Shown: positions 2,598 through 61,815 of the stretch, piece by piece
Position numbering within the stretch: position 1 is the stretch's first letter
How the letters are laid out: each line of letters starts with the position of its first letter
Assembly: GCA_963780855.1 (NCBI GenBank)
Contig: CAWADF010000002.1
Coordinates: 207,100-271,099 of the forward strand
DNA from: an uncultured Acidobacteriota bacterium
GTDB lineage: Bacteria; Acidobacteriota; Vicinamibacteria; Vicinamibacterales; SCN-69-37
DNA: 64,000 nt
Reading direction: 5' to 3'
Position numbers and translations under genes: made by a program
Notes under the pieces: generated by a model
Told to the model about the DNA's origin: nothing
Seen by the model: only the letters and a program-made list of their open reading frames with translations
Database searches by the model: none

Positions 2598-2670
2598 GCC
2601 CGGCACTGGGCAAGAGGCACTGGGCACTGGCGCGCGTCGTCATGCTGAGCAATGCCCAGTGCCCAATGCC
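2598..2670. repeat. Imperfect palindrome of GGCACTGG/GGCATTGG words (right arm continues at 3699-3707, split by IS630)
   Basis: Left arm GGCACTGGGCAAGAGGCACTGGGCACTGG, about 20-nt loop, right arm AATGCCCAGTGCCCAATGCC[TA-IS630-TA]GTGCCTGAC. Lies between the convergent stops of the dehydrogenase and the GH3 gene. Confidence 0.7.
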
Positions 2671-2691
2671 TAAAGCGTTTTTCATGATCCT

Positions 2692-3298
2692 TTAGCGACC
2701 ACCGTAGCCGCAGTGGCGAAAATAGTTGCGGCACTCGGCGGCCGAGAAGCGCGTCAGGCAGTCGCCGAGCAGCGGCCACAGGGTCTCGGTCGACCGACAG
2801 CGCGCCGCTCGAAGGATCGCCTTCAGTTTCGCGAAGCAGAGTTCAATCGGATTGAAGTCGGGGCTGTAGGGCGGCAGGTACCAGAGCTCGGCACCGGTGG
2901 CCGCGATGCGGTCCTCGATGCCGTCGACGCGATGGGCCGGCAGATTGTCAGCCACAACGATGTCGCCGGCCTGGAGCGTGGGCGCCAGGATCTGGTCGAC
3001 GTAGGCGAAGAAACTCTCGCCATCCATCGGCCCATCGAACACGCCGGGCGCCGTCAGGCCATGCACGCGGAGGGCGGCGATGAAGGTGCTCGTCTGCCAC
3101 CGGCCCTGCGGCGTGTGGTCGGCGACGCGCTGGCCCCGCAGGCTGCGCCCGTATCGACGGAGCAGATTCGTGGTCACGCCGCTTTCGTCAAGAAATACAA
3201 GGTGCGCCGGGTCCAGCGTCGGCGCGATCGCCTGCCAGTGGCGCCGCGCTGCCCGAATGTCAGGCCGGTCGTGCTCGGACGCGCGTACCGTTTTTTTT
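2692..3298 (-). CDS. IS630 transposase, DDE catalytic part (orfB; joins orfA at the A8 run)
   Basis: VFLDESG ... VADNLPAHR ... YSPDFNPIELCFAKLK form the DDE triad context of IS630/Tc1-mariner transposases. The frame opens inside the A8 run at 3291-3298. Confidence 0.8.
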
Positions 3299-3622
3299 GA
3301 CCGTAAATGTGAGGGCATCTACGGCCCGCCATATCGTCGCGAGACTGGCGTCGGTGGCCAGGGCGGCTTTCAATTCCACCAGCGTCTGGTCGGGCTGCGC
3401 CTGGATGAGCTCGGCCAAGCGGTGCAGGTGCGGCTCGAGCTTCCGCCGCGGCCCATGCCGCTGCGCACGCGGCGCCACTTCGCCCGTCTCACGACGGCGT
3501 TGCTTCAGCAACCGCACCCACGATCCGCTCACCTGGTACTTCGCCGCGACGTCCGCCGCCTTCATGCCGGCATCACTATCGCGAAGCGCCCGCACGCGCA
3601 GATCCATCGAATACGCTCGCAT
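3260..3622 (-). CDS. IS630 transposase, N-terminal HTH part (orfA)
   Basis: MRAYSMDLRVRALRDSDAGMKAADVAAKYQVSGSWVRLLKQRRRETGEV is the typical IS630/Tc1 paired-like HTH. This frame stops 30 nt after an A8 run. Confidence 0.8.
   Translation of the reverse strand: MRAYSMDLRVRALRDSDAGMKAADVAAKYQVSGSWVRLLKQRRRETGEVAPRAQRHGPRRKLEPHLHRLAELIQAQPDQTLVELKAALATDASLATIWRAVDALTFTVKKNGTRVRARPA
3291..3298 (-). promoter_or_regulatory. A8 homopolymer at the orfA/orfB junction: candidate transcriptional-slippage / recoding site (or a homopolymer miscall)
   Basis: Minus strand reads GTC AAA AAA AAC GGT. Removing one A (or adding two) fuses orfA to orfB as ..FTVKKKTVRASEHDRP.. Confidence 0.4.
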
Positions 3623-3695
3623 CGGTCCCTCCTCCGCGTGCGGACAGAGGTACCATCCGGCCGTCTTCAGGTACAAGACCTATCTGAAAAACGCT

Positions 3696-6368
3696 TTAGT
3701 GCCTGACTGTTACCTCACCCCTGAGCCTGATGTCCTTCGACGACGCGCCGATCAGAATTCGAAAGGCGCCCGGCTCGACGACCCAGTGCAGATAGCGATC
3801 GAGCAGCTTCAAATCCTCGCGTCCGACGCTGAACGTCACGTCGCGGCGCTCGCCTGGCTCGAGATGGACGCGCTGAAACTGCTTGAGCGCGATGATGGGC
3901 TGTGCCACCGACGCCAGCAGATCGCGGATGTAGAGCTGTACGACTTCGTCGCCCGCGCGGCGGCCTGAGTTCGTAATGGCGCAGCGCACGGTCGCCGTGC
4001 CGTCGGGACCAATCTCCGCGGGCTCGATCGAAAGGTCCGAGTACTCGAACGTCGTGTAGCTCAGGCCAAACCCGAACGGAAACAGCGGCTGGCCAGTGAG
4101 ATCGACGTAGTCGTCGCCGCGGCCGGTCGGCTTGTGATCGTAATAGAGCGGCAGCTGGCCTTCGGCGACGGGGAAGGTGATGGGCAGCCGGCCCGCGGGA
4201 TTGGCGTCACCGACGATCACGTCGGCCACGGCGTCGCCGCCCGCCTCACCCGAATACCACGCGTCGACGACCGCCGCCACGCGATCGAGCCACGGCATCG
4301 TGATCGCGCTTCCGCCGACGAGAACGACGATGGTTGGCTTCCCCGTCGCAGCCACCGCGCGAATCAACTCGTCCTGCCTGCCCGGCAACCCGAGGAGCGC
4401 GCGGTCGCGGAACTCGCCTTCCTCGATTCCCGCGACGACGACCGCCTCGTCTGCGTCCTTCGCCACGGCCACGGCGTCCGCAATGGCGCGATCGGAGTCG
4501 TCGACGATGCCGGCGTTCCAGATCAGCCTGAGTCGGGCGTTGCCGGTCTCCTCGAAGTACTCGAGGCGGATCGCGTGACGCGAGCCCGGCTCGAACGACA
4601 CCGGCGTCGTCTTGACGCCGTACGACTGCTTCTTCCAGTCGTCGATCGCCAGCCGATCGTCGAGGTAGAGGCGAAAGCCGTCGTTGCCCTCGACGCCGAT
4701 CCGCGTCACGCCCGACGCGGGCACAACGACCGTGCCGCTCCAGCGCACCGAATACCAATCGAACGGGATGCCGCGGCCGGGCGCGTTCAGCGTCCAACGA
4801 AAGTCCATGCGCGCGTCGGTGCGCGTCAGTCGAGGTGCGCCGTCGAGCTTCGGATTGTCGAAGTACTCGCCCATGAGACCCTGCACGCCCTGGCCGTTGA
4901 GCTGTGACGCGAGCGCGGCCACGGGCACGACGTCGAATTCGCGAATCGTGCGCCCGGGGCCTCGCGCGTAGCGAACGGCGCCGGCCGTCGTGAGCGCCCG
5001 CTCGAGACCCGCCCGAATCGAGACGGTGTGGTTGCCGGGGCCGCTGTAGTCGCCGAGCCGCACCTCGTCGGCGTCGGCGCCGATGAGCGCGATCGCGCGC
5101 GCGGATCGGGCGATCGGCAGCACGCCCGCGTCGTTCTTGAGCAGCACGATCGACTCGCGGGCGGCCTCGCGGGCGAGCGCGCGATGCGCGTCGCTGTTCG
5201 CCTCCGCGGCCGCGCGATCGGGATCGGCGTACGGGTGCTCGAACAGCCCCAGCTCGAACTTCACGCGCAGCACGCGCGCCACGGCGGCGTCGATCACCGC
5301 CGTCGGAATCAGCCCGCGCCGAAAAGCATCCAGATACGGACGCTGCTGGCCGTACGCCGACTGAAAGACGACGTCGAGCCCCGCGTTGAAGGCGTCGGTC
5401 GCGGCCGCGGCCGTGTTTGGCTCCGTCATGTGGAGCACCGTCGCCCCGCTCGTCCCGGAGGCGTCCGAGATCACGAACCCGGGAAAGGCCCAGTCGCCCT
5501 TGAGCACGTCGGTGAGCAGGTGCCGATTCTGCGTCGCCGGCGTGCCGTCGACCGAGTTGTATGCCGCCATGATCGACCGCGCGCCGGCCTGAATCGACGC
5601 GACGAACGGCGGGTCGTACCGCTCGAGCAGCGCGCGCTCGCTGCGATCGATCGGATAGCTGTCGCGCCCGCCCTCGCCCACGTTCGCGACGAAGTGCTTC
5701 GGCGTGGTCACGACGCCCGCCCGCTCGAACGCCGTCACGAACGCGCGCGCCATTCCCGACGCGAGCACGGGGTCTTCGCCGTACGTCTCCGCCACTCTCC
5801 CCCAGCGCACGTCGTCGGCGATGTTGACGACGGGCGAGAGCACCTGACGGATGCCGCGCGACGCGGTCTCGCTCGCGATCGCGCCGGCGACGCGCGACAT
5901 GAGCGCAGGATCCCACGTGGCCGCGAGCGCGATCGCCGACGGATACACGGTGGCGCCGTCACGCGCGAGACCATGGACGGCTTCCTCGAAGGGGAGGATC
6001 GGAATGCCCAGCCGCGTGCGCTCCACGAAGTAGCGCTGAATCGCGTTGATGCGATCGGCGTGCGCGCGGGCCGCCGCCGGCGCGGACTGCTCGGACCGGC
6101 CGCGGGTCGTGCCAACCTGCAGCCCGAAAATGCCGTGCGAGTAGTCGTTCGCGGGATTGTCCAGATCGCCCGGGATCATGAACAACTGCCAGAACTTCTC
6201 CTCGAGGGTCATGCGCGAGACGAGGTCGCGCACGCGCTCGTCGATCGGCCGTGACGCGTCCTTGTACGGCGGGACTTGCGGAACGGCACCCCGCCACGCC
6301 GCGGTCGCTGCGACCAGACAGATCGCGATGCCCGCTCGCGCGACGGCGAATCTCGTCGAGCCGATCAC
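3696..6368 (-). CDS. bglX: Secreted glycoside hydrolase family 3 beta-glucosidase with PA14 insert
   Basis: Intact 890-aa ORF with an N-terminal signal. GH3 N-domain (KHFVANVGEGGRDS; nucleophile context GFVISDASG). PA14-like insert (GLMGEYFDNPKLDG...FRLYLDD). GH3 C-domain and Fn3-like tail. Confidence 0.9.
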   Translation of the reverse strand: MIGSTRFAVARAGIAICLVAATAAWRGAVPQVPPYKDASRPIDERVRDLVSRMTLEEKFWQLFMIPGDLDNPANDYSHGIFGLQVGTTRGRSEQSAPAAARAHADRINAIQRYFVERTRLGIPILPFEEAVHGLARDGATVYPSAIALAATWDPALMSRVAGAIASETASRGIRQVLSPVVNIADDVRWGRVAETYGEDPVLASGMARAFVTAFERAGVVTTPKHFVANVGEGGRDSYPIDRSERALLERYDPPFVASIQAGARSIMAAYNSVDGTPATQNRHLLTDVLKGDWAFPGFVISDASGTSGATVLHMTEPNTAAAATDAFNAGLDVVFQSAYGQQRPYLDAFRRGLIPTAVIDAAVARVLRVKFELGLFEHPYADPDRAAAEANSDAHRALAREAARESIVLLKNDAGVLPIARSARAIALIGADADEVRLGDYSGPGNHTVSIRAGLERALTTAGAVRYARGPGRTIREFDVVPVAALASQLNGQGVQGLMGEYFDNPKLDGAPRLTRTDARMDFRWTLNAPGRGIPFDWYSVRWSGTVVVPASGVTRIGVEGNDGFRLYLDDRLAIDDWKKQSYGVKTTPVSFEPGSRHAIRLEYFEETGNARLRLIWNAGIVDDSDRAIADAVAVAKDADEAVVVAGIEEGEFRDRALLGLPGRQDELIRAVAATGKPTIVVLVGGSAITMPWLDRVAAVVDAWYSGEAGGDAVADVIVGDANPAGRLPITFPVAEGQLPLYYDHKPTGRGDDYVDLTGQPLFPFGFGLSYTTFEYSDLSIEPAEIGPDGTATVRCAITNSGRRAGDEVVQLYIRDLLASVAQPIIALKQFQRVHLEPGERRDVTFSVGREDLKLLDRYLHWVVEPGAFRILIGASSKDIRLRGEVTVRH

Positions 6369-6389
6369 GGCGTCCCGTGCCGCAACGCG

Positions 6390-7355: not shown

Positions 7356-7379
7356 CCCGCGATTCTACGCCCGGCCGCG

Positions 7380-8683: not shown

Positions 8684-10130
8684 ATGTCGATTGCCATCGT
8701 TCCGAACTTCGTCGGCGGACGCTGGGTCGATGCCGGCACGGCGTCGACGGTCGACGTGCACAACCCGGCCCGCGGCACGGTCATCGCGCGGACGCCGCTC
8801 TCCGGCGCGCGGGAGGTGGACGCGGCCGTCCAGGCCGCGGCCGCGGCGTTTCCAGGCTGGCGCGACACACCGCCAGTCGTTCGCGCGCGCGTGATGTTCG
8901 CGTTCAAGGCCGCGCTCGAGGCGCACTTCGAGGAGATCGCACGCATCATCACCACGGAGCACGGCAAGACGCTGGACGAAGCGCGCGGGAGTCTGCGGCG
9001 CGGCATCGAGTGCGTCGAGGTCGCGTGCGCCGCGCCGTCGCTGCTGATGGGCGCCGGGCTGGAGAACGTCGCGCCCGCCATCGACTGCACGCTCGTGCGC
9101 CAGCCCCTGGGCGTCACCGCGGCCATCGCCCCGTTCAACTTCCCTGCGATGGTCCCGCTCTGGTTCCTGCCCTTCGCCGTCGTCTGCGGCAATACCTTCA
9201 TCCTCAAGCCCTCGGAGCAGGTCCCGCTCTCGATGCAGCGCATCGTCAAGCTGCTGGCCGGGTGCGATCTGCCGCCGGGCGTCGTCAATCTCGTCAACGG
9301 CGGCCGCGAAGCGGTCGAGGCGCTGTGCGATCATCCTGGCATCCGGGCTGTGTCGTTCGTCGGATCGACGCCGGTCGCCCGCGCGCGTGTACCAGCGCGC
9401 AACGCACGCCGGCAAGCGCGTCCAGGCGCTGGGCGGCGCGAAGAACTTCATTGTCGTGCTGCCGGATGCGGACCTCGATCGCGCGATCCCGGCAATCGCC
9501 GAGTCGCTCTACGGGTGCGCCGGCGAGCGATGCCTCGCGGGAAGCGTGCTGCTGCCGATCGGATCGGCCCGCGGCGAGGTGCGGGCGCGGCTCGCCGGGG
9601 TGGCCGAGTCGATGACCATCGGTGACGGCCTCGATCCGGGCGTGCAGATGGGACCCGTGATCAGCGCCCGGCATCTCGAGCGCGTGCGCGGGTACGTCGC
9701 GCAAGGTGCGAGCGACGGCGCCCGGCTGGTGGTGGACGGGCGCGCGCGGTCGCTTCCGAAGGACGGCTTCTTCGTCGGCCCGACGGTGTTCGACGAGGTC
9801 GCGCCGGCGATGACCATCGCGCGCGACGAGATCTTCGGGCCCGTCGCGTCGATCTGCGGAGTCAAGGACATAGACGAAGCGCTGCGGATCATGGACGCCC
9901 ATCCCAACGCAAACGCGACCTCAATCTTCACGACGAGCGGCCGCGCGGCCCGCGAGTTCGCGCGGCGCGCAACGGCGTCGATGGTTGGCGTCAACATCGG
10001 CGTGGCGGCGCCGATGGCGTACTTTCCGTTCGGCGGCGCGCGCGACAGCTTCTTCGGCGACCTGAAGGTGCACGGCCGGGACGCGTTCGAGTTCTACACG
10101 GACAAGAAGGTGACCATTGCCCGATGGTAA
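8684..10130 (+). CDS. mmsA: CoA-acylating methylmalonate-semialdehyde dehydrogenase, one frameshift near 9385
   Basis: ALDH motifs FNFPAMVPLW and ILKPSEQVP in the ORF 8600..9625 frame. It continues in ORF 9387..10130 with GAKNFIVVLPDAD, catalytic Cys context GCAGERCLAGS and the C-terminal FGGARDSFFGDLKVHG typical of MmsA. Confidence 0.85.
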
Positions 10131-15746: not shown

Positions 15747-16749
15747 ATGCGCCTGCTGCGCAAGGCCGGCCGGAATGCCCGCGTCGTGCGGAAGTTCGTC
15801 CACGGCCTCGTGGACACGGACCACCCGCTGCTCGTCCACATCGTCCCGATCCGGCGCTGCAACATCGACTGCGGCTACTGCAACGAGTACGACAAGGTCT
15901 CGCCAGCCGGTGCCGACGGAGGTGATGGAGCGCCGGATCGCGAAGCTCGCGGCGCTCGGCACTTCGGTCGTCGCGTTCAGCGGCGGCGAGCCGATGCTGC
16001 ACCCGGACCTCGACGGCATCGATTCGCGCGATCCGCCGGCACGGCATGATGGCGGGCCTGATCACCAACGGCTACTTCCTGTCGCCGAAGCGGATCGAGG
16101 CGCTGAACGACGCCGGGCTCGACTTCCTGCAGATCAGCATCGACAACATCGAGCCCGACGAGGTCTCGAAGAAGAGCCTGCGCGTGCTCGACAAGAAGCT
16201 GCAGTGGCTGGCCGAGCACGCCGAGTTCGACGTCAACATCAACTCCGTCCTCGGCGGCGGCATCAAGAACCCCGAGGACGCGCGCGTCATCAACCTGCGC
16301 GCGCGCGAGCTCGGCTTCTCGACCTCGATCGGCATCATCCACGACGGCGACGGCCTGCTCAAGCCGCTCGGCGGCCCGCGAGCGCAAGGTGTTCGACGAC
16401 GTCACGGCGGCGGTCAACGGTCCGCGGCAGGTTCTCAAGAACCTGTACACCGGGCATCCGCGGCTTCCAGGAGAACCTCGCCGACGGCAAGCCGAACGAA
16501 TGGTACTGCCGCGCCGGCGCGCGCTACCTCTACATCTGCGAGGACGGGCTCGTGCACTACTGCTCGCAGCAGCGCGGCACGCCCGGCATCCCGCTCGAGG
16601 ACTACACGGTCGACGACATCCGCCGCGAGTTCATGACGCCGAAGTCGTGCGCGCCCTACTGCACGATCGGCTGCGTCCATCGCGTCTCGACGATGGATTA
16701 CTGGCGAAAGCCGCAGGACGGAAGTTCGAAGTTGGAAGTTCGAAGTTAG
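15747..16749 (+). CDS. Radical SAM protein with Cys-rich C-terminal (SPASM/twitch-like) region, about 4-5 frameshifts
   Basis: [11 protein letters not shown] (CxxxCxxC), then [40 protein letters not shown], and [24 protein letters not shown]...[11 protein letters not shown]. The pieces are spread over ORFs 15567.., 15775.., 16046.. and 16389... Confidence 0.75.
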
Positions 16750-16836
16750 AAGGTCGAAGTTCGACGCGGAGCTTCGAGGGTCGGCCGCGCCCTCTGATTC
16801 TGAACTTCACACTTCATACTTCGAACTTCTAACTTG
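16720..16836. repeat. Imperfect palindrome of GAAGTTC words
   Basis: Left arm (GAAGTTC GAAGTTG GAAGTTC GAAGTTA GAAGGTC GAAGTTC), about 30-nt centre, right arm TGAACTTCACACTTCATACTTCGAACTTCTAACTT. The radical-SAM stop codon lies inside the left arm. Confidence 0.7.
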
Positions 16837-16863
16837 ATCCCGATCGTGCTAGAACCTTCCGTC

Positions 16864-19610: not shown

Positions 19611-21132
19611 TCAGTCCGCCGCGGCGACAACGTCCCCCTCCAGCTCGTGCGGTGGCGCCCGCGATGGCCGTGCCACGGGCATGGCCTCCGGCAACCCCAA
19701 GTGACGCAGGATGCGTTCCACCACCGGCTTCGCCTGAATCAGCGCCACCAGCCGCAAGCGCCCCCGACAGCGCGGACAGGCCAACACGTCGAACCCGAAC
19801 CCCCGCCGCATCAGTTCCGCCCAAGTCGAGTTCGGCGCGCGCCGTGCGTCGGCGGCCGGCGTGGCTCCCTTGGCCTCCTGCGCATCGACGACCGGCGCCG
19901 CCGGGACGATGTTGCGCCGCCAGGCGGCTCGCGGCGCCAGCACGCCGTGATACAGGATCAGATTCACCCGCGGCCGCGGCACCAGCGCCGCCAGCCGCTC
20001 GAGCAACTCGATCGGCTCGAACAGCACGTGCGTCGTGCCATCACGCCAGCGCCGGTGAAGCTCGAGCACGATCGTCCCGTCCGCCATCGCCTGCAGCCGC
20101 ATCTGTCCCACCGCCGGTCTCAGCGCGTAGCGGCACAGCCGCTCGAGCCGGTCGCGCGCCTTCGCCGGGACGCGAATGCCGGCGTGCAGATCGAAGCCCT
20201 CCTCGTGCGCGTGCCAGGCCATCGCCGTGGCCGCGCCGGGCGCGTCGATCGCCTCATCGCCGCCCCAGCGCCGCGCCGGGACGCCTGCACGGCGACCGAG
20301 CGCGGCGACGCCATGGACCGAGGCCGCGGCGAGTCCCGCCAGTGCCGGCGCCGTCTCCGTCCACGCGTCCGGCACGTCGTCGGCACCGAACCCGCCCGCC
20401 AGGCCGCGCCGGGCCAGGAGGCGATCGATCCCCCGCGCGATGCGACCGAGCAGCCGTGACAAATCCGGCGACGTCCCGCGCGGATCGCGCCAGAACCGCA
20501 CGCGCCCGCCCGGGCCGCGCGCGAAGACGCCGTCGAGCACGAGCGCGTGGACGTGCACGTTGAGATTGAGTGCGCTGCCGAATCGCTGCACGATCGCGAC
20601 CGCACCGAAGCGGCCGCCGACCACACCGCGTCGGCGTGCCCGGGCCCGGAGCCAGCCGCCCACCGCGCGCAGATACACACCGACCACTGCGCGGCAGAGG
20701 GCATGGTCCCACGCGAGCAGATACCGCAGCCGGAGCGGCAGGGTCAGGACCCACTGGCGCACGGGCACCGACGGGAAGACACGACTGGCCAGGTGCGCCG
20801 CGCGCCCGGTCATGCGCCGGCCGCCGCCCCTCGACGATGCTCGGGGTGGCCCTGAGCCCGGTCGAAGGGCCGCAGCTCGGACAGAAGCCGCGGCCCTTGC
20901 AGGAGAACGCGACGAGGCGATCGAGGCCGCACGCCGGGCAGCGAAACCGCGCGAAGCCGCCCGCGAGACTCCCGCACGTCAAAAACTGACGAAACTCCCG
21001 CTCGATGAACGCCGGCAGGCGGTCCCCGCGCCGCCGCGCCGCGCGGGCGAGAAATGTCTCGAGGTGGTCCCGCACGAGCCCATGCAGGATCTCGCGCTCG
21101 GGCGTGCGTGGGCGATAGGCGGCCGACGCCAT
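19611..21132 (-). CDS. IS91-family transposase, one frameshift near 20830-20870
   Basis: N-terminal zinc-binding part FRCPACGLDRLVAFSCKGRGFCPSCG (ORF 20254..21132). Catalytic part with HUH-type LNLNVHVHALVLDGVF and Tyr region ERLCRYALRPAV (ORF 19611..20813). Confidence 0.85.
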
Positions 21133-21356: not shown

Positions 21357-24300
21357 CTAGTAGAAGTCGTGTGACGCGACCTCCGGCCCTTCATGCCGGA
21401 GCGCGTCCACACGATCGGCTTTGACCGAGACCGCGCCATCCTGATTCTGCAGCACGCCTTCGACCAGCAGATACGGCGCGTCGACGATCGTCCGCTTGTA
21501 CGCGCCGAACACGTCGGGCGTGACGATGACGTTGGCGATGCCGGTTTCGTCCTCGAGCGAGAGAAAGACAAAGCCCTTCGCGGTGCCGGGACGCTGGCGG
21601 ACGAGTACGGCGCCGGCGACGCGCACGCGCCGGCCCGCGCGCGCGCGCAGCAGATCGATCGCGCGCTGCACGCCGCGCGTCGCGAGTGAGGCGCGCAGGA
21701 ACGACATCGGATGCGGCCCAATCGTGAGGCCCGTCCCGTCGTAGTCCGCACGGACGCGATCGGGGAGGGACATGGCGGGCAGAGGAGAGCTCACGTCGGG
21801 CACTGGGCATTGGGCACTAAGCACTGGCGTTGGCGCTGGCGCCGGCTCAGCGTGATCCTCACCAATGCCCAATGCCCAATGCCCAATGCCTGATCCGTCT
21901 GTGTCCATCAACAACGGCCCGGCCGGCCGGCCCGCGCGCTCGGCCTGCCAGAGCGCGGATCGGCGATCGCCGCCGAGCGACGCGAGCGCGCCGATCTCCG
22001 CAAGCGTGCGCAATTCGTCCTGGCGCAGCCCGGCGCGCGCGACCAATTCGTCCAGGGATCGAAAGCGCATGAGATCAGGCACGAGGCATTGGGCGCTAGG
22101 CACTAGCATCGCACGCGTGTCACTCGCCAGTGCCGAATGCCTAATGCCTGGTGCCTGACTTTCTATCCTCTTCCCCACGTCATCTCTCAGCCCTCGTACG
22201 TACCGGAGTCCCAATCGAATCGTCCCGTCGTTTTGCACGACGCAATTCCACTTCGAGATCTGCACGTCAATCGGCGCGAAGCGCACGCCGTGGCGCTGCG
22301 CGTCCTTGACGAGCGTGGCCGGCGAGTAAAACCCCATCGGCTGGTTGTTGAGCAGCGCCGTGTAGAACGCCGCGGGGTAATGCGCTTTCAGATACGCGCT
22401 CGCGTAGACGATCAGCGCGAAGCTTGCCGCGTGCGATTCGGGAAACCCGTAGAGCGCGAACGACGTGATCGACAGCACGATGTCGTCGGCGGCCTGACCG
22501 GTGATGCCGTTCTTCGCCATGCCGTCGCGCAGCCGCTGTTCGATCTGCTGCATCCGCTTCACCGACCGCTTGAAACCCATCGCGCGCCGCAGCTCCTCCG
22601 CCTCACCGCCGGTGAAGCCGGCGACGACCATCGCCATCCGCAGCAGCTGCTCCTGGAACAGCGGCACGCCGAGCGTCCGCTCGAGCACCGGCTCGAGCGC
22701 CGGATGCGCGTAGGTCACCGGCTGGTCGCCCCGGCGGCGCGCCAGGTACGGATGCACCATCTTCCCGACGATCGGCCCGGGCCGGATGATCGCGACTTCG
22801 ACGACCAGATCGTAGAAGTGCTCCGGCTTGAGCCGCGGCAGCGTCGCCATCTGCGCGCGCGACTCCACCTGAAAGACGCCGATGGTGTCGGCGGCCTGCA
22901 GCATGCGATAGACGGCGGGGTCGTCGGGGGGAAGGTGCGCGAGATCGACACGATCAGGCCTCAGGCATTGGGCACCAGGCACTGGCAAGCGGGCATTGGG
23001 CATGAGGCATTGGGCACTCGACGCAGACAGCGGATCATCAGCCACTGCCTGATGCCTGACGCCCGATGCCTGCTCTTCTAGTGCCCGATGCCCAATGCCT
23101 AATGCCTGCTCTCCATTGACAATGACAAGCGCTTCTTCCAATGCCGCCATCATGCCCAGCCCCAGCAGATCGACCTTGATGATCCCGAGGTCCGCGCAGT
23201 CGTCCTTGTCCCACTGCACGACGACGCGGCCGGGCATCGACGCGTTTTCGAGCGGTACGATCTCGTCGAGCCGGCCCTGGCAGACGACCATCCCGCCCGA
23301 GTGCTGGCCCAAATGGCGCGGCAGGTCCTGCATCTGCTGCCACAACCTGGCGAAGAGTCGATACCGCTGGTCGTCGGGATCGAGGCCGGTCTCGCGCAGA
23401 TTGCGCGCGATCGTTTCTTCGGGATCGACGAACTCGAACTGGCTCATCAGCCGCGCCAGCCGGTCGATCTCTGCCGCGTCCAGGTCGAGCACCTTGCCGA
23501 CTTCACGCGTCGCGCTGCGGCCGCGATAGGTGATCACATTGGCGGTCATCGCGGCGCCGAGCGTGCCGTAGCGCTCGTACACGTACTGAATGACGCGCTC
23601 GCGCCGGTCGCCGCTCGGCAGATCGAGATCGATGTCCGGCCACTCGCCGCGCTCCTCCGACAGAAACCGCTCGAAGAGCAGCTCCATCCCCACCGGATCG
23701 ACGGCCGTGATGCCGAGCGCGTAGCACACGGCGCTATTGGCGGCCGACCCGCGCCCCTGCACGAGAATCCCCTGCTGCCGGCAGAAATTGACGAGGTCCC
23801 AGACGATGAGGAAGTAGCCGGCGAGGTCGAGCTTCTCGATCAGATCGAGCTCGCGCTGGATCTGTGCGCGGGCGCGGTCGTGATACGGCCGGTAGCGATC
23901 GCGCGCGCCGACCTGCGCGAGGCGCCGCAGGAACGACGCCTGCGTCTCGCCGTCGGGGACCGGGTAATCGGGAAACTTGTAGCCGAGATCGGCGAGCGTG
24001 AACTCGAGTTGCTCGGCGAGCGCCTCGGTGCCGGCGAGTGCCTGCGGATGATCCGAGAACAGCCGCGCCATGTGGTCGGGCGGTTTGAGATAACGCTCCG
24101 CGTTTGCCGTCAGCCGCCGCCCCGCCCGCGCGAGCGTCGTCTTGTGCCGCAGGCAGGTGAAGACATCGTAGAGCGGACGACCCTCGGGCGCCGCGAAGCG
24201 CACGCCGTTGGTGGCGACGAGCGGCACGCGGAACGCCGCCGACAAATCGACGAGCGATTGCAATGTCGTCTGCTCGTCGCGGCGGAAGTGGCGCTGCAGC

Positions 24301-27018: not shown

Positions 27019-27047
27019 AGTATAGGACGAACGCGCGAGGCGATCAA
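27019..27047 (-). promoter_or_regulatory. Sigma-70-type promoter of imuA: TTGATC-17 nt-TATACT
   Basis: Minus strand reads CTCTTGATCGCCTCGCGCGTTCGTCCTATACTGACTCC, with the -10 about 33 nt upstream of the imuA ATG. The leader contains the direct repeat GCGAAAAC-AAA-GCGAAAAT. Confidence 0.55.
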
Positions 27048-27066
27048 GAGGCGAAACTGCATCCAT

Positions 27067-27317: not shown

Positions 27318-27341
27318 AGCAGAGGATAAGATCGGCCATCC

Positions 27342-35855: not shown

Positions 35856-35860
35856 TTGAG

Positions 35861-35954: not shown

Positions 35955-35964
35955 GAGAGCCCTG

Positions 35965-46208: not shown

Positions 46209-47845
46209 TCAGGCGCCCGGCCCAGGTAGCGGAGCACCATCACCGTGATGTCGTCGCTCTGCGGCGCGCCGCGGTGAACGCGCGCACGGCGGCGACGACG
46301 CGCTCGACAGCGCCGCGGGCGATCGCCGACGGCATCGACGCCGCCTGCAGCCGCGTCGTCGCCGAACTCCTCGCCGGCCGCTGTTGAGCGCCTCCGACAC
46401 GCCGTCGCTGAAGATCACGACGGTGTCGCCCGGCGTCGAGCTGCACGGTCTCCTGCTCGTACGGCGCGAACTCGAGCAGGCCGACGACGGGCCCGCCCGG
46501 CCTCGAGCCGCCGCACGCCGCGACTTGCCGACGACGAGCGGCGGATTGTGGCCGGCGTTGCAGTAGGTCAGCGCGCCGTCGCGCCGAGACGATGCCGAAC
46601 ATCAGCGTGACGAAGCGCGACTCGATGCCCGCGGCGGCACAGCGCCTTGTTCATGTTGCGTCGACGGCCGTCGGCCGGGCCGTCGGCGTAGCTGCGCCTG
46701 CGCCGCGAACATGCCCTGCATCAGCGCGCTCAGCAGCGCGGCCGGCGGTCCCTTGCCGGCGACGTCGCCCGAGCGTGAAGCCGAACGACCGCCCGGGCTG
46801 GTCGACGTAGTCGAAGAAGTCGCCGCCGATCGACCGGCACGGGAAGCTGGCCGCGGCGGCCTCGACGAACGCCGAGGCTCGCGACGCGGCTTCGGCAGCA
46901 GCGCCTGCTGGATCTCGGCGGCGATCCGCATCTCCTGCTCCATCTGCGCCTTCTCGAGCGTCTCGCGGTAGAGCCGCGCGTTCTCGATGGCGACCGCGGC
47001 CTCGGCGGCCAGCGTCTCGAGCGCCGAGCGCGTCGCGCTCGAGAGCAGGCTGCCCCTCTCGCGGCTGTCGAGATACAGCACGCCGATGCGGCGGTCCTCG
47101 CCGCGCGCGTCGGCCGACTCGACGTACTGCACGAAGTTGCAGCGGCACGCAGAGGACGTGGCGGATGCCGAGCGCGACGGTGCCCATGTGCACGTCGGCG
47201 AAGGTCGCCGTCGAGCAGGTCCGCCACGACCTCGCGTCTGCCCGGTCCGGAACACCTCCTCGGGAATCTTGCGGCTCGTCGCGAAGGTCGCTGTCCGTCA
47301 GCGTCTGCTTGTCGCGGCCGCGCGCCAGCTTGAACTCGAGCTCGCTCGTCCGGCGTCGCCAGCATGATGAACCCGCGCTCGGCGCCGGACACCTCGATGC
47401 GCCGCGTCGAGCACCAGCGCCAGCACTTCCTCCAGCACGCGGCCCGATCCGAGCGCGCGGAAGCCCTCGAGCAGCGCCGTGATCTGGCGCAGGTCGTCGC
47501 GCGCGCCGGTCGACGATCGGCCGCTGACGCGACGCGGTCGTCGTCGCCGGTCAGGAAGACGAGATCGGCGCCGCCGCCGCGGCCGAGCCGGATGCGGTCG
47601 CCCGGACGGAGCTCGCATTCGGTGACCGGCTCGCCGTTGACGAACGTGCCGTAGCGCGACTCGCGGTCGCGCAGGACGTACGCGGCCGTTGTCCGAGGAC
47701 GATCTCGGCGTGCTCGCGCGACACCTCGCTGCCGCCGAGCCGCAGGTCGTTGGTCTCGCGGCGGCCGATGGTGAACGGGAAGCCGATCGAGCGGTCACGA
47801 CGCGCTCGCCGAGCACGTCGCGCACTTCCAGCCGGGCACCGCCAT
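46209..47845 (-). CDS. FHA-GAF-PP2C (SpoIIE/RsbU-type) serine/threonine phosphatase, heavily frameshifted
   Basis: FHA: FPFTIGRRETNDLRLGGSEVSREHAEIV..YGTFVNGEPV. GAF: LEEVLALVLDAA..GFIMLA..IGVLYLDSRE..LAAEAAVAIENARLY. PP2C: AAEIQQALLP, SIGGDFFDYV, FTLGDVAGKGPPAALL, VVIFSDGVSEA, SDDITVMVLRY. Confidence 0.75.
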
Positions 47846-47856
47846 GTCAGCCGTCA

Positions 47857-48160
47857 GTCTACACGAAGCCCGCCGGTGCGGCAGGTCGAGCCGCGGCCAG
47901 CGCGGATCGACAGCGCCGACACGAGCGGTGGCCGCCAGCCCGCCGACGACGCCTCGATGAACGCGCGATGCTCAGGCCGCACGCCGACCAGGCGACGACC
48001 GCCGCCAGTGAGCGCGGTCGACGGTCGCCGCGGCCAGCGCCCGGGCGCCGTCGCCGCGCGGCGTCGGCTCGGCGCGACCGGCTCGGCCGTCGGCGTCGCC
48101 GCACCGGTAGCAGACGATGGCCTTGTCGGCGATCTCGCGTCCGCACGACCGGCACTTCAC
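47857..48160 (-). CDS. Small zinc-ribbon protein with hydrophobic tail, frameshifted; ends approximate
   Basis: AAGGGAG RBS. GTG-KCRSCGREIADKAIVCYRCG (CxxC-N11-CxxC), followed by a hydrophobic stretch in another frame. Confidence 0.4.
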
Positions 48161-48218
48161 CCGACAGCGCGACGCTCCCTTATACTGACGGGCTGGCGTA
48201 CGCGTCGATCGCCGCCCG

Positions 48219-48891
48219 ATGATTCCGCTTCGAGACGTCATCCCGTCGCGCACGACGCCCTGGGTCACGCTGCGTGCTCATCGCCGTCAACGTCGCCGTC
48301 TTTGTCTACGAACTGGTCCTGCCCGCCGCGCGCGCTGCCGCGCTTCTTCTACGCGCACGGCCTGGTCCCGCGCCCGTTTACCTGGGCCACGGCGGTCACC
48401 TCGATGTTCCTGCACGGCGGCTGGCTGCACATCGGCGGCAACATGCTGAGCGCTCTGGATCTTCGGCGACAACGTCGAGGATCGGATGGGCCACGTGCGC
48501 TTCCTGGTCTTCTACCTGCTCGGCGGCCTGATCGCCGCGCTCAGCGCAGACGCTGGGCCGACGCCGGCTCGACCGCTGCCGGTCGTCGGCGCCAGCGGCG
48601 CGATCGCCGGCGTCATGGGCGCGTATCTCGTGCTCTTCCCGCGTCGCGGGTGCTGGTGCTCGATCTTCCTGTTCTTCTTCGTCGACGTCGTCGAGATGCC
48701 GGCGGTGTTCTTCCTCGGCTTCTGGTTCCTGATGCAGATCGTCGGCGGCGTCGGCCGCTCGGCAACGCGACGGCGGCAGGCGTCGGCGTTCTGGGCGCAC
48801 GCCGGCGGCTTTCTGTCCGGGCATTGCCGGCGTCTGGCTGTTCAAGCGCCGCGAGCGCCAGCGCGTGGACTGGTGGAGCCAGGGAAGTTGA
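48219..48891 (+). CDS. Rhomboid-family intramembrane serine protease, frameshifted
   Basis: MIPLRDVIPSRTTPWVT, MFLHGGWLHIGGNML, catalytic Ser context VVGASGAIAGVMGAY, FWAHAGGFLSG (catalytic His). TATACT -10 at 48181-48186. Confidence 0.8.
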
Positions 48892-49070
48892 AGAGGTGAG
48901 AAGTGAAGAGAGCCAGAAGTGCGAAGTCAAAGCTGTCGCGCAGCGCCCGGACCCGCAGATCCATCGAGGTAGGCTCGCATCGGCCTCCTCCTCGCGCCGG
49001 AGAAGACCTACTTGAACAACGCCTTAGAACTTCCAACTTCGAACTTCTGGCTTCTCACTTCTCTTCTCCC
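48882..49070. repeat. Imperfect palindrome of GAAGTTC/GAGAAGT words (same subfamily as 16720-16836) with an IS630 fragment in its centre
   Basis: Left arm GGGAAGTTGAAGAGGTGAGAAGTGAAGAGAGCCAGAAGTGCGAAGTC. Right arm GAACTTCCAACTTCGAACTTCTGGCTTCTCACTTCTCTTCTCC. The right arm contains the reverse complement of the 21-mer GAAGTTCGAAGTTGGAAGTTC also present at 16721-16741. Confidence 0.7.
48929..49026 (-). mobile_element. Remnant (about 95 bp) of a second, diverged IS630 copy: terminal repeat plus the first about 13 codons of the transposase
   Basis: The reverse complement TAAGGCGTTGTTCAAGTAGGTC....ATGCGAGCCTACCTCGATGGATCTGCGGGTCCGGGCGCTGCGCGACAGC aligns with the tnp-proximal end of the intact copy (TAAAGCGTTTTTCAGATAGGTC....ATGCGAGCGTATTCGATGGATCTGCGCGTGCGGGCGCTTCGCGATAGT). 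Confidence 0.65.
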
Positions 49071-50055
49071 CCCTTGCGCCTCACATCACGCGAGACGACC
49101 GAGAGCTCGATGATGAGCTTTTCGAACTCCGCGTCGATACGCTTCGGCGGCGTCATCGAGGGACGCCGGCGCCGGAGGTCGTCCACCTGCTCGGTGAGCG
49201 CGCGCTGGCGCTCGAGGAGCTGCTGCATGCCGGGGTCGCTCGACGTCGCGCGACCGCGGCGTCCAGATACGTCAGGCGCGGCGACCGTGCCGGCGCCGCC
49301 GTCAACCGGCTTGTCGTGGGGCGCGCCGTCGCCGGTGTCGTCGAAGACCGCGTGTTCGGTGGCGATCCGCCGCGACTGCTCGTAGGACTGTTCGACGAGG
49401 TCGCGACGCGTAGACGAACGCCTCCGAGCAGCGAGACCCGGCCGTTCTTGTCCGTGGTCGGCGGCCGCCGCCGACAACGCCTGGATGAACGCGTCGGCGA
49501 ACACGGTGTGGTAGTGCTGCGCGAGCGTGCTCGTGGCCGTGATGATCACGCGGCCCGGCGCCGCCAGCCCGTCAGGAACGGAAAGCTCGCGCTGGTCGCG
49601 TCCACGAACGCCAGATGCCCGGCCACCGGCTTGAGCAGGTCGTTCCACTCCGACACGCTCAGATCGGGGCCGACGAGGTTGAACTTCGCGTCCGTCGCCG
49701 TCACCGCCGCCGTGTCCAATCAGCATCACGAAGAGCGAGGTCGTCCGGCTTGGTTGCTTTGGCGAACGTCGCCGAGCGCCGCCTTGACGCCCTCGGCGGT
49801 GGATTTCTCCTCGCCCGCGCTCGGGGTCTCCGCCAGCACGACCAAATGCGCGGCGTCGAAGCCGAACTTGGTCTTGAGCAGCGTCGACCAGCGCGTCGAG
49901 CCACTGGCGATGCAGCGTCGCGTAACTCGTCGTCGCCCGACACGCCTTCGACGACCAGCGCGTACCGCTGGCCGGCTGCTGAGCGAGCGCGGGTGCGACT
50001 CGCGACGGCGCGGCTGACCGCGGCCACGACCGCCGCGGCAGAGACCGCCCGCCAT
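49055..50055 (-). CDS. Secreted peptidase C13 (legumain/caspase-fold)-like protein, frameshifted
   Basis: Signal AVSAAAVVAAVS. QRYALVVEGVSGDDEY, DLLFVMLIGHGGGDG (His-Gly dyad context), GRVIITATSTLAQ, TDKNGRVSLLE-like segment, then a long charged C-terminal helix. The catalytic Cys could not be placed because of the frameshifts. Confidence 0.5.
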
Positions 50056-58589: not shown

Positions 58590-60472
58590 GGCGCGCCGTC
58601 ACGCCGCGATCAGGACGTGCGCGCGCGGCGCCGAGCTCCGTGAGGACCCGCTCGGCGGTTTCGGGCGAGCCGTGCAGCGACGTCATCTGCACGCCCTCCA
58701 CGCGGTCGCGCAGCCAGCGCGCGATCTCGACCGTCGCCGCCAGCGCCTCGTCCGCGGGACGCTCGGCGCTGCGCAGCCGATCGAGCAGCGCGTCGGCCAC
58801 CCGCACGCCGACGACCTCGCTCGCCAGGAACTCGGCCTGCCGCACGCTCTCGAGCGCCGCGACGCCCGCCAGCGACGGGCAGGCCGGTCGCACGTCAGCC
58901 GCGGCCAGACCGCGTCGAACGCCGTCGAGATCGAGCACGGGCGGCGTCACGAGGAACTCGGCGCCGGCCTCGACCTTGTGCGCGAGCCGCCGCCACTCGG
59001 CGTCGGGATTCGGCGCGAAACGGGTTGACGCGCGACGCCGATGTGGAACCGCGTCGGCGCGCCGATCGGCTGGCCGCCGATGTCGAGCCCGTGGTTGAGC
59101 CGCGGCGACCATGTTGGTGAGGCCGATCGGCGTCGACGTCGAAGACCGAGGTCGCGTCCGCGTAGGTGCCCTGCGGCGCCGGGTTGCCCGTCGTCAGCAG
59201 CACGTTGCGGAGGCCCATCGCGTGCGCGCCGACGAGATCCGACTGCATGCCCGATCAGCGTGCGATCGCGGCACGAGTAGTGCAGCAGCGTCTCGACGCC
59301 GGCCTTGCTGCTCGATCAGCGACGCGAGCGCCAGCGCGCTCGCGCGCGCGCCGGCCTTCGGGTAGTCCGGCACGTTGACGGCCATCGCGCCGAGGTCGCT
59401 GGAACCGGCGCGCCTGCGCACGACGGCGGCCGCCAGATCGAGTCCGCGCGGCGCGGCGACCTCGGCGAGCACGACGAACTGCCGGTCGGCGAACGCGCGC
59501 GCCAGCGCGCGACTTCTCGCGCCGATCGACGGCCAGCGGCGTCGGCGGCCGGCGCCTCGACGACGACCGCCGGCGCGGGCCGGCGCGCGCCGGCGGGCGC
59601 CATCGCGCGCACGGCCAGCGCTGATCTGGCGCATGTGATCGGGCGTCGTGCCGCAGCAGCCGCCGACGAGCCGCACGCCGGCCGCGATGAACCGGCGCGC
59701 GTAGCTCGCCATGTACTCGGGCGAACCCAGATACAGGTTGCGGCCGTCGACGTCGCGCGGGCGGCCGGCGTTCGGCTGCGCGGACAGCCGCGCGCGCGTG
59801 AGCCGCGCCATGCGCTCGATCGTCTCGAGCATCGCCGCCGGCCCGACGCTGCAGTTGACGCCGATCACGTCGGCGCCGGCCCGCTCGAGCTCGGGCGCGA
59901 ACGTCTCGGGCGGCGTGCCGTCGAGACTGTTGCCGTCGTCGTCGGTCGTCATCTGCGCGACGATCGGCAGCGGCGACACGCGCGCGCACGGCGCGAATGG
60001 CGGCCTTCAACTCGTTCAGGTCGCGGAACGTCTCGAGGATGAACAGATCCACGCCGCCTTCGGCCAGCGCCGCGGCCTGCTCGCGAAAGGCGGCCTCGGC
60101 TTCGTCGACGCCCGTCTGGCCCCACGGCTCGATGCGGACGCCGAGCGGGCCGATCGATCCGGCGACCCAGGCGGCGTCGCGCGCCGCGTGCCGGGCGATG
60201 CGCGCGCCCTGGACGTTGATCGCGCGCGACCTGGTCGGACCAGGCCGAAGTTGGCGAGCTTGAAGCGGTTGGCGCCGAACGTGTTCGTCTCGAGCACGTC
60301 GGCGCCGGCGCGCACGTAGTCGCGATGGACGCTCGGCGACCAGGTCGGGCTGCGTCAGGTTCAGCTCGTCGAAGCAGCGATTGAGGAAGATGCCGCGGCG
60401 CGTACAGCATCGTGCCCATCGCGCCGTCACACACGAGCACGCGGGCATCGAGCGCGTCGAGAAAGGAGGGGG
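58582..60472 (-). CDS. Bifunctional homocysteine S-methyltransferase / 5,10-methylenetetrahydrofolate reductase (YitJ-like), heavily frameshifted; start approximate
   Basis: FLDALDARVLVCDGAMGTMLY, VHRDYVRAGADVLETNTFGAN, DLFILETF, VGVNCSVGP, VRLVGGCCGTTPDHM; then the MTHFR half FVVLAEVAAPRG, HYSCRDR, GLRNVLLTTGNP, EFLVTPPVLD. Confidence 0.8.
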
Positions 60473-60478
60473 CACGCT

Positions 60479-60620
60479 GGATCTACAAGGTTCTACAGGG
60501 TTCACGGGTCACGGGTCACCAGGTCGGCATGTTCTGAGCCAGCGAGTCGCTGAATCGCCTCCGCACATGTCGCAGAACCTGGAGAACCGTAGAACCTGTA
60601 GACCCGTGAACTTGTAGATC
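60479..60620. repeat. Imperfect palindrome of GTTCTAC/GTTCACG/GTCACGG words with perfect 10-bp termini GATCTACAAG
   Basis: GATCTACAAGGTTCTACAGGGTTCACGGGTCACGGGTCACC ... centre with palindrome CAGCGAGTCGCTG ... GAGAACCGTAGAACCTGTAGACCCGTGAACTTGTAGATC. Confidence 0.7.
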
Positions 60621-60629
60621 TCGTTGTCG

Positions 60630-61069: not shown

Positions 61070-61077
61070 ATCAAACG

Positions 61078-61175
61078 TGCCTGGTGCCAAGTGCCGCGTG
61101 CTTGGTGCGGTGCCCAGTGCGTGCTTGGTGCCGTGCTCGGTGCCGTGCTTGGTGCCGTGCTTGGTGCCGTGCCCT
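61078..61175. repeat. Left inverted arm (about 100 nt) of GGTGCC/GTGCTT words flanking the four-helix-bundle gene
   Basis: GTGCCTGGTGCCAAGTGCCGCGTGCTTGGTGCGGTGCCCAGTGCGTGCTTGGTGCCGTGCTCGGTGCCGTGCTTGGTGCCGTGCTTGGTGCCGTGCC. Confidence 0.7.
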
Positions 61176-61248
61176 GCGGGTCCTGTGTCCTGTGCAATGA
61201 CTGCGCCTTGCTGAGTGCTGAGCTGGCGCCTTGCTCATCGTTCATCAC

Positions 61249-61640
61249 TCATCCACGATCCGAGCCTGGACCGAGCGTCCTGTCGTCCGGATCTGGTGTG
61301 CTTCGGAGATCGCGATGGAGGGCGGTGAGCGACGCCATCGCCTTGCCGGCGAGCGCGTCCAGTGTTTCAGCTTCGTCGCTGGTGATAAAGCCAGACTCCT
61401 GCGCCTCGATGAGGTGATCCATGATCTCTCCCAGTGACGCGTGACTGGACGTCAGGGCATCGCCGCCATGCCCGCAACTCCCGCGGCTGCCTCGCTCCCA
61501 CGGATTCGTCCCCTGCAAGAATCGCCGCGGTCGTCGGACAGCGATTCTTGCGCTGTCGCGCGCGACGCGTGCAGTTCCTGCGATCGCGGAAGGATTCGGT
61601 GTCTGCAGAATCTTGCAACCAGTCGCGCGCGACACCGCGC
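61249..61640 (-). CDS. Four-helix-bundle protein (23S rRNA intervening-sequence protein family, PF05635-like), frameshifted; start approximate
   Basis: C-terminal half SLGEIMDHLIEAQESGFITSDEAETLDALAGKAMASLTALHRDL fits the GSxxE...(g)yi...L...L pattern of the family. Upstream ESFRD and an AEG-like segment are scattered over frames. Confidence 0.4.
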
Positions 61641-61716
61641 ACCGCGCGATGTCTCGACTCAGGGATCGAGACCAGGCACTCTTGGGGCAACGGCACCGAC
61701 CCCGCCCGCCCGCCGG

Positions 61717-61815
61717 GGCACCAAGCACCGCACGCGACACGGCACCGCCCAGGCACGGCACCAGGCACCGCACCAGGCACGCGCACCCGGCACCTGGCAC
61801 CCGGCACCTGGCACC
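61717..61815. repeat. Right inverted arm (about 100 nt), complement of the 61078-61175 word array
   Basis: GGCACCAAGCACCGCACGCGACACGGCACCGCCCAGGCACGGCACCAGGCACCGCACCAGGCACGCGCACCCGGCACCTGGCACCCGGCACCTGGCACC. Confidence 0.7.

Follow-up and report, generated by a model that had tools for sequence, protein, structure and literature searches.

How do hairpins made of arrays of very short words come to stand at the ends of genes, in the spacers between them and inside the reading frame of a DNA polymerase? The question is raised by a 64-kb stretch of DNA from a soil acidobacterium of the Vicinamibacterales (contig CAWADF010000002.1; this whole stretch is called the window, and its GC content is 0.695). 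It contains 10 compact hairpins, one one-armed array and one long-range inverted pair. The compact hairpins follow a common plan, in which an array of degenerate words of 7-9 nucleotides (nt) is followed by a unique centre and then by the reverse-complement array, and four of them lie in frame within dnaE2. We favour, at a rough probability of 0.55, the reading that these are hairpins of inverted heptamer arrays that are dispersed by copying, grow by slippage and persist where little harm is done. The best-supported assignment of the window hairpins is to the same structural kind as the inverted GGGAATC pairs of Xanthomonas, represented here by several word families.

Inverted word arrays form long hairpins

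Arrays were detected with Tandem Repeats Finder (TRF) and paired with their reverse-complement partners, with 20 dinucleotide shuffles as controls. The census returned 19 scoring pairs in the window, against a mean of 0.85 in the shuffled window; 12 elements are among these pairs, and the rest are GC-rich low-complexity noise. The period of the paired arrays is 7 at most loci, 8-9 at the hairpins starting at 27066 and 35861, and 12 in the long-range pair at 61078/61717. RNA folding, in which each locus was compared with dinucleotide shuffles, gave long imperfect hairpins of -41 to -146 kcal/mol with stems of 27-96 pairs; the z-scores of 10 loci range from -2.3 to -9.5, with 7/10 at or below -3.9. 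Sequence, TRF and folding thus confirm the design of word array, centre and reverse-complement array that an earlier note, made from the sequence of the window, had described at named loci. An Rfam scan of the entire window found no family at gathering score.

At least six unrelated words occur in the 64 kb. GGCAYTG is found at five loci and GAAGTTC and GGTGAAT at two each, with identical multi-word strings within each family. An identical 21-mer, GAAGTTCGAAGTTGGAAGTTC, stands at both 16721-16741 (+) and 49027-49047 (-), where the expectation is 0, and 27264-27281 and 35917-35934 have the identical 18-mer TTCACCCGTTTCACCCAT, with none expected by chance. With at most one mismatch, GGCAYTGGGCAYT has 22 matches versus 0.27 expected, all within the five GGCAYTG loci. 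Both shared strings, and the view that the subfamilies exceed low complexity, therefore stand as the earlier note gave them. Its description of the repeats as AT-richer holds for most elements (GC 0.48-0.68) and fails for the arms of the long-range pair (0.69 at 61078 and 0.76 at 61717). A CRISPR array was considered and rejected, as the units here are 7-9 nt long, contiguous and inverted, versus repeats of 24-48 nt with unique spacers.

Copies inside dnaE2 are in frame and free of stops

The dnaE2 gene (21357-24878, - strand) encodes an error-prone DNA polymerase, a Pol III alpha homologue, and forms a single open reading frame (ORF) of 1173 amino acids (aa). Four sites in this gene had already been listed; what goes beyond that listing is that the 1173-codon ORF reads through all four hairpins, in frame and without a stop. 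They are the only intragenic copies among the ~55 genes of the window, and all are built from GGCAYTG words (- strand). Insertion 1 (24540-24674, aa 69-113) has z = -3.9 (24540-24675) and a TRF period of 21 x 2.2, with an unpaired 21-nt higher-order extension besides the hairpin. Insertion 2 (22950-23111, 160 nt, aa 590-643) folds at -105.8 kcal/mol with z = -7.7 (22945-23120). Insertion 3 (22068-22157, 90 nt, ~aa 908-937) has the centre GCGAGTGACACGCGTG and z = -6.0 (22068-22158), and insertion 4 (21786-21899, ~aa 994-1031) folds at -73.1 kcal/mol with z = -9.0 (21790-21900).

The insert peptides are variations on G-I/T-G-H-W-A-L ... S-A-Q-C-P-V/M-P. As 7 and 3 share no common factor, a heptamer array passes through all three frames and gives a 7-residue peptide repeat in every frame, and GGCAYTG is without a stop codon in all six. 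In an alignment with 16 homologues, gaps fall exactly at the four insert places, and two of the homologues (P0046 and P0088) are essentially insert-free. Where insert 1 (45 aa) lies, E. coli Pol III alpha has a 10-residue loop of the PHP domain, and in place of insert 2 (51 aa) it has a 6-residue palm/fingers junction. Inserts 3 and 4 flank the helix-hairpin-helix (HhH) region ahead of the OB fold; by the Pfam limits, insert 3 interrupts the HHH_6 domain and insert 4 lies between the HhH and OB domains. Among Pol III alpha homologues, DnaE2 is noted in a published survey for its unusually heterogeneous core length (PMC3919608).

As there is no protein-level reason for coding DNA to be palindromic, the hairpin would be a property of the DNA or RNA that the protein tolerates. 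Judged from the sequence, the four copies most likely yield low-complexity loops on translation, as Rickettsia palindromic elements (RPEs) do. Inteins were rejected, since no such domains are present and the DNA is palindromic. A phmmer search with the 54-aa site-2 peptide against 1.84 billion proteins gave 0 matches at E <= 0.001, from a query that is too short and too low in complexity to be informative on other hosts.

Orthologous sites are filled, empty or replaced

The best DnaE2 relatives carry a Vicinamibacterales (Acidobacteriota) annotation; the nearest one found is 85% identical. Three comparison contigs (L001-L003) share with the window the imuA/imuB/dnaE2 synteny and the divergent MFS gene. 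In the window, the MFS / imuA spacer holds a 252-nt GGTGAAT-type hairpin of AATGGGTG/TTCACCCGT words at 27066-27317, which folds at -146 kcal/mol with z = -9.5 (27055-27325). The same spacer has a ~150-nt hairpin of ATTGGGCT words in L001, just 20 nt and no hairpin in L002, and 52 unrelated nt without words in L003. At dnaE2 site 3, the window and L001 have an orthologous 90-nt element where L002 has 9 nt, and at site 2 the words are GGCAYTG in the window, AACTTAG in L002 and of GGGCC type in L001. The GAAGTTC-word hairpin at 16720-16836 (z = -4.5, 16715-16840) is retained with the same words in L001 (17865-17958). Filled, empty and replaced orthologous sites show that the elements are gained, lost and replaced over 80-85% protein identity.

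Between the window and L001, the stem region of site 3 differs at three positions, with one broken pair, one wobble change and no compensatory pair; with only three differences, the comparison for compensatory change is uninformative. In L003, a further word hairpin of ~180 nt, strongly AT-rich in a 67% GC genome, lies in the imuB-dnaE2 spacer (9810-9989, GATTGAAAATTGATG... / ...CCAAATTCCCAAATTCC).

The 27066 hairpin starts 19 nt upstream of the -35 element of a promoter-like imuA site, a sigma-70-like TTGATC-17-TATACT at 27019-27047 (-). This site sits in a block (tttcgcctcttgatcgcc...tatact) that is conserved upstream of imuA in L001-L003, and probably serves the SOS mutasome operon as promoter or operator.

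One kind of unit is copied between sites and arms grow locally

Window site 3, window site 1 and site 4 of L001 have common arms, a 16-nt unique centre GCGAGTGACRCGCGKG and GATCAGGCA...TGCCTGATC ends that contain GATC; the centre of window site 3 recurs in a paralogous copy. As the three sites are non-orthologous, whole units of ~85-90 nt have been duplicated from one site to another. Elsewhere the same words are combined with different centres, as seen for 16720 and 48882, for 27066 and 35861, and for three GTCCAAA copies within one dnaE2 gene (L185).

Inside the arms, higher-order periods of 14, 17, 21, 23 and 41 nt are found. The 27066 element has a heterogeneous 8-mer array with a 41-nt super-repeat as its left arm and a nearly perfect 9-mer array as its right arm. 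The unequal unit size and homogeneity of the arms argue that they expand independently by slippage once a hairpin exists.

Hairpins in related genomes

A set of 83 related loci was assembled from 80 metagenomic loci recovered by a DnaE2 scan (50-70% identity) and L001-L003. At least one word hairpin is present in 33/83 of these loci. At 50-70% identity, the metagenomic relatives are too distant for catching recent insertions. From all loci examined, 63 non-overlapping hairpins were pooled, of which 39 have period 7 and 17 have period 8. The words vary between genomes and recur between sites of one genome, as GTCCAAA does in L185 and CCGGGAT in L140 and L143.

Intragenic hairpins in the dnaE2 genes of other genomes cluster at relative positions of ~0.06, 0.5 and 0.73-0.85, and the ORF is unbroken in 18/18 related loci that carry them. 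Words that are stop-free in six frames make up 28/31 of the intragenic words versus 26/42 of those outside. Over 850 kb from 84 loci including the window, a sample ascertained through dnaE2, we also counted the compact hairpins that do not overlap. Inside dnaE2 there are 20, a further 13 occupy the 300 nt upstream of its start, and other open frames hold at most 12, an open-frame upper bound that was followed by BLASTP against ImuB. Seven of the eight other-frame cases checked are in frame within ImuB homologues, namely L001 9654-9720, L131 350-441, L132 1823-1909, L134 694-763, L136 671-745, L170 611-716 and L185 3090-3183; the eighth (L127) is at the ImuB N-terminal junction of a longer ORF (BLASTP E values, 1e-51 to 0). 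The ImuB hairpins fall at ~aa 120-145, 205-250 and 375-400, and the imuB gene of the window itself is without one. For a sample drawn via dnaE2, these counts are suggestive of an enrichment of hairpins in the mutasome operon.

A scan for the GGCAYTG word, with three words required and one genome per species, matched more than 119 contigs, ~90% of them from filamentous cyanobacteria (mostly Nostoc, Calothrix and Microcoleus); of 125 arrays, 13 have a reverse-complement partner no more than 400 nt away. Clean word hairpins elsewhere include a perfect one in Gemmataceae (L012 265-352), one in Acidobacteria gp7 (L118 2329-2412) and two in Longimicrobium (L119 1450-1534 and 2834-3112). The GGCAYTG word is common to the window, L012 and L118.

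The G-rich arm comes first

In the window elements, the G-rich word arm is always 5' and the C-rich arm 3', and since the unit is palindromic, this polarity holds on both strands. Among the pooled hairpins, 27/63 are clearly asymmetric, and the G-rich arm is 5' in 24 of these 27 (binomial p = 5e-5). When each word family is counted once per locus, the polarity is 23 versus 2, and all exceptions (three hairpins, in L131 and L136) use the word CAACTCC. One possible cause is that selection disfavours a C-rich 5' arm, which would be a Rho loading site when exposed in nascent RNA. It is also possible that the same G-rich repeat was added to each of two 3' ends before these were joined.

Intergenic elements and their neighbours

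Flanking genes were typed by Pfam on individual ORFs, and codon-model gene calls were used only for 1-37 kb. Of the intergenic window elements, 6/8 start within ~10 nt of a stop codon or overlap one. The remaining placements in the window are one between divergent genes, the four inside dnaE2 and the long-range pair between divergent 5' ends, so that the claim that most copies sit at gene ends is borne out by six that abut or overlap a stop codon and is too broad overall, where they amount to only about half.

The GGCAYTG-word hairpin at 2598-2671 (-41.5 kcal/mol, z = -2.7 for 2594-2691) begins 5 nt past the stop of a UDP-glucose dehydrogenase gene (1631-2593, +). An element resembling the insertion sequence (IS) family IS630 adjoins its right edge, flush with the hairpin. 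This element (2670-3699) has perfect 15-nt terminal inverted repeats CTAAAGCGTTTTTCA / TGAAAAACGCTTTAG (2670-2684 and 3685-3699) and a DDE_3 transposase ORF (2692-3318, -). The T5 run at 2678-2682 lies in its inverted repeat, and is therefore IS sequence and no terminator tail of the hairpin. A second transposase ORF, of the Y2_Tnp type (IS91-family rolling-circle transposase; 19611-20813, -), lies ~540 nt downstream of the dnaE2 stop.

The 16720 hairpin stands between a radical SAM gene (+) and an amidohydrolase gene (+), with the stop of the former (16747-16749) inside its left arm. Between the convergent genes of a GlgC-like protein (stop 35855) and a histidine phosphatase (stop 35965) lies the GGTGAAT-word hairpin at 35861-35954 (-50.5 kcal/mol, z = -8.2 for 35856-35964). 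The hairpin of GAAGTGA/GAAGTTC words at 48882-49070 (z = -2.3 for 48875-49075) has a centre of ~100 nt, and its arms contain both flanking stops, that of a rhomboid gene in the left arm (48899) and that of a convergent ORF in the right arm (49055). GTTCTAC/GTTCACG words form the hairpin at 60479-60620 (-71.1 kcal/mol, z = -6.4 for 60476-60625), 10 nt downstream of a ferredoxin stop (60630, - strand) and upstream of an S-methyltransferase gene. A weak member, at 34175-34224, has a response regulator gene and a small ORF as its convergent neighbours and had been taken for a palindrome at 34174-34224. It is a one-armed GTCCAGG/GTCCAAA array with a short closing stem (z = -1.9), and its word forms full hairpins in L185.

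The sequences at 61078 and 61717 had been placed in the GGCAYTG family. They proved to be the two arms of one long-range inverted repeat with a 12-nt word, the left arm (61078-61172) consisting of GGTGCCGTGCTT words and the right arm (61717-61816) of AAGCACGGCACC words. The arms, ~95 nt each, pair as an RNA duplex of -160.9 kcal/mol and enclose 545 nt, and the pair is flanked by the 5' ends of genes in divergent orientation (the ferredoxin gene and downstream + strand ORFs). On the - strand, the interior includes an ORF end that weakly resembles the C-terminal half of the four-helix-bundle / 23S rRNA intervening sequence (IVS) protein, with matches below threshold (TIGR02436, E = 0.023; PF05635, E = 0.12). 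By sequence, the word arms possibly enclose the remnant of a four-helix-bundle gene.

The rhomboid gene (47750-49015 / 48450-48899) and the homocysteine S-methyltransferase gene (59194-60505) are each split over two frames, and codon-model gene calling breaks down across most of 37-60 kb. The split genes and the failure of the gene caller point to assembly indel errors or pseudogenes.

Origin of the hairpins

In the reading that we favour, a hairpin unit, i.e. two opposed arrays of 7-nt (sometimes 8-9 nt) words around a short unique centre, would be seeded by copying from another locus. Each arm would then lengthen or shorten separately via replication slippage of single words and of multi-word blocks. 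Hairpins would survive just after stop codons or in intercistronic spacers, where they would do little harm, and at coding sites words that are stop-free in six frames would persist in flexible inter-domain loops of the protein. The inserts would then be neutral or selfish rather than functional, and a hairpin might affect the transcript that carries it.

Several points weigh against this reading. No target-site duplication was found in the filled/empty comparisons at the MFS / imuA spacer and dnaE2 site 3, made at 80-85% identity, where a short duplication could be eroded. Among the IS630-like and IS91-like neighbours in the window, no transposase end matches the hairpins. With the closest DnaE2 relative found being only 85% identical, no fresh insertion was caught. 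As the centres are mostly not common to same-word copies, copy-paste of a whole element is demonstrated for one subfamily only, and the sharing of words within a genome could come from gene conversion between arrays or from trans-acting templating. Neither the 24/27 arm polarity nor the concentration in imuB and dnaE2 is expected under a purely neutral model, and translation of the inserts is deduced from the conservation of frame. The suggestion of mobile elements in the earlier note accordingly holds in part, for one subfamily with common arms, centre and termini and for the presence/absence differences, and finds neither a target-site duplication nor a matching transposase end.

The hairpins could instead be functional RNA elements under selection, an explanation that we consider possible and, on balance, doubtful. 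At 3' ends and in spacers they would serve as factor-independent terminators, exonuclease blocks or RNase III sites, those within or before imuB and dnaE2 would throttle expression of the mutasome, and the words would simply offer mutation its easiest way to build a long stem that tolerates shifts of register. The bias towards stop codons among the intergenic elements fits this explanation, as do the 13 hairpins upstream of dnaE2 starts in related loci and the retained position of the 16720 hairpin in L001; the Xanthomonas repeats show the same placement bias and are transcribed (PMC4692102). Canonical U-tract terminators are not above shuffles in the scanned regions, which makes another 3'-end device plausible. 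However, no hairpin is followed by a U-tract and terminator scans give no site at any hairpin, so that the terminator role proposed earlier is unsupported in its canonical form. The large 27066 hairpin lies between divergent genes, beside the promoter-like site, and orthologous sites are sometimes empty. Stems of 30-96 pairs are far beyond what a terminator needs, and the site 3 changes between the window and L001 comprise a broken pair and a wobble without any compensatory pair.

A more speculative explanation, which we regard as unlikely, is that the hairpins are not passive junk and arise from a directional process that adds repeats to DNA and is linked to the SOS mutasome. Neutral slippage does not readily give three observations: the G-rich-5' polarity, common words often without common centres, and the concentration of in-frame copies in imuB and dnaE2, and of copies in the spacers around these genes, across Acidobacteriota. 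By analogy, the G-rich-5' geometry would be that of two 3' ends extended by the same repeat and joined head to head, as in a telomere-telomere fusion. The hairpins might then be scars of break or gap repair by reiterative synthesis, carried out by ImuA-ImuB-DnaE2 near its own locus or by a templated enzyme; alternatively within this link to the mutasome, they would be cis-regulators that the operon has recruited repeatedly. If true, free-living soil bacteria would possess an RPE-like system of protein remodelling.

Birth purely in place is, in our view, quite unlikely. Here slippage with a favoured 7-nt step would build the arrays, inversion would follow by fold-back or template switching, nothing would move, and common words would reflect a convergent mutational or compositional bias. 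Heptamer simple sequence repeats are over-represented in many bacteria, and slippage set by the polymerase footprint has been put forward as a hypothesis, as summarized in PMC4692102 (citing Mrazek 2007). The higher-order repeats and independent expansion of the arms agree with such a birth, same-word copies usually differ in their centres, and at the empty L002 site, catcggcgattgcgc looks like a pair of degenerate words similar to ATTGGGCT. It does not account well for identical 21-nt and 18-nt multi-word strings, with variant words in the same order, at distant loci, nor for a 16-nt unique centre and GATC-containing ends common to non-orthologous copies. One word is used at 5/12 loci, out of ~1170 possible heptamer classes, and unrelated words occupy the same dnaE2 site in 80%-identical relatives; both argue against in-place birth.

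We judge it very unlikely that the hairpins are classical non-autonomous transposons, i.e. MITEs (miniature inverted-repeat transposable elements) or REPINs, mobilised in trans by an IS630-family DDE, IS91 Y2 or RAYT enzyme. Dispersed families and presence/absence polymorphism would fit, and both an IS630-like element, directly beside the 2598 hairpin, and an IS91-like Y2 gene, next to dnaE2, are at hand. But the filled/empty comparisons lack duplications, the IS630-like inverted repeats (CTAAAGCGTTTTTCA) match none of the word families of the window, and the many word families in each genome, the variable centres and the arms built of tandem words are atypical of such elements. No RAYT was found in the part of the ORFs that was scanned.

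Assembly or sequencing artefacts in the form of chimeric palindromes are ruled out by recurrence of the architecture in dozens of independent JGI, NCBI and ENA assemblies and at orthologous positions, with the dnaE2 frame always preserved, although apparent frameshifts in two window genes indicate that the assembly is not error-free.

Comparison with known systems

Heptamer repeats are over-represented in bacteria yet almost unstudied. The hairpins described here provide a concrete system in which the spread of such repeats, the preference for 7 nt and a possible effect of hairpins on the expression of a mutagenic polymerase can be studied. Their inserts inflate and diversify protein lengths and create low-complexity 'domains' in annotation, and the hairpins likely trouble assembly and polymerase chain reaction in these genomes. 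A literature search returned nothing on such repeats in Vicinamibacteria or Acidobacteria, nor in imuB or dnaE2.

Among known repeats, REP is a conserved imperfect palindrome of 20-40 nt, linked to RAYT, a Y1 transposase, and strictly extragenic, and a REPIN consists of two inverted units that form a long hairpin. The window elements resemble the REP/BIME/REPIN group as extragenic hairpins at gene ends, often between convergent genes. They differ in that their arms are tandem words, whereas that group has no tandem-word substructure, does not come in many families and is not found in frame. The 61078-61816 unit recalls the intervening sequences of 23S rRNA, with a long inverted-repeat stem around a few hundred nt and a weak S23p-type match, but it lies outside any rRNA gene and its stem consists of 12-nt words.

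RPEs, reportedly described by Ogata et al. in 2000, are palindromes of ~100-150 nt that occur both between genes and in frame within them; in the latter case the protein gains a peptide at a permissive place on its surface. They are not known to have terminal repeats, target duplications or a transposase. The likeness lies in these traits and in in-frame palindromes that leave genes intact, as in the window dnaE2, the 18/18 related loci and the ImuB homologues. There is no sequence relationship, and RPEs have a defined consensus instead of word arrays and occupy many genes of an obligate intracellular alphaproteobacterium, unlike the focus on dnaE2 and imuB seen here. The lineage-specific occupation of DnaE2 and ImuB loops would be a second natural example, after Rickettsia, of palindromic DNA making protein segments.

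Cyanobacterial short tandemly repeated repetitive (STRR) sequences of Calothrix and Nostoc are, as summarized in PMC4692102 (citing Mazel et al. 1990), abundant intergenic tandem heptamers. They are like the window arrays in this respect, and the GGCAYTG word itself forms arrays in >100 cyanobacterial contigs. STRR arrays are nearly all one-sided, in contrast to the paired arrays of the window and their acidobacterial host, and few inverted pairs are reported in Nostoc (PMC4692102).

The closest match is in Xanthomonas, and the earlier statement that no described repeat class has this design does not hold. Rehm et al. 2015 found GGGAATC heptamers as convergent inverted pairs, with 70-75 pairs per genome (PMC4692102). 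These are 89-93% intergenic and lie on average 28 nt past the upstream ORF or overlap it; they are transcribed, and their gene context is usually kept between species while their length varies (PMC4692102). The hairpins of the window agree with them in opposed 7-nt arrays with stem-loop potential and the G-rich array first, and also in being mostly intergenic, near or overlapping an upstream stop, with context kept, length variable and a minority intragenic. In Xanthomonas, however, one word that is capable of forming G-quadruplexes dominates, whereas the window has at least six unrelated words, with dozens across its relatives, and none of its words (GGCAYTG, GAAGTTC, GGTGAAT, GTTCTAC, GTCCAGG and others) has G3 tracts in every unit. 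The long unique centres, the subfamily with a conserved centre and the systematic in-frame occupation of DnaE2 and ImuB loops are further differences. New here are several word families per genome, the polarity of the arms, the phylum-wide in-frame occupation of DnaE2 and ImuB, stop-free in the four dnaE2 copies of the window, and the 61078-61816 unit. Together with the occurrences in other phyla, these hairpins suggest that the inverted-pair form reaches beyond Xanthomonas to phyla that are abundant in soil, to Acidobacteriota and, on single contigs, to Gemmatimonadota and Planctomycetota.

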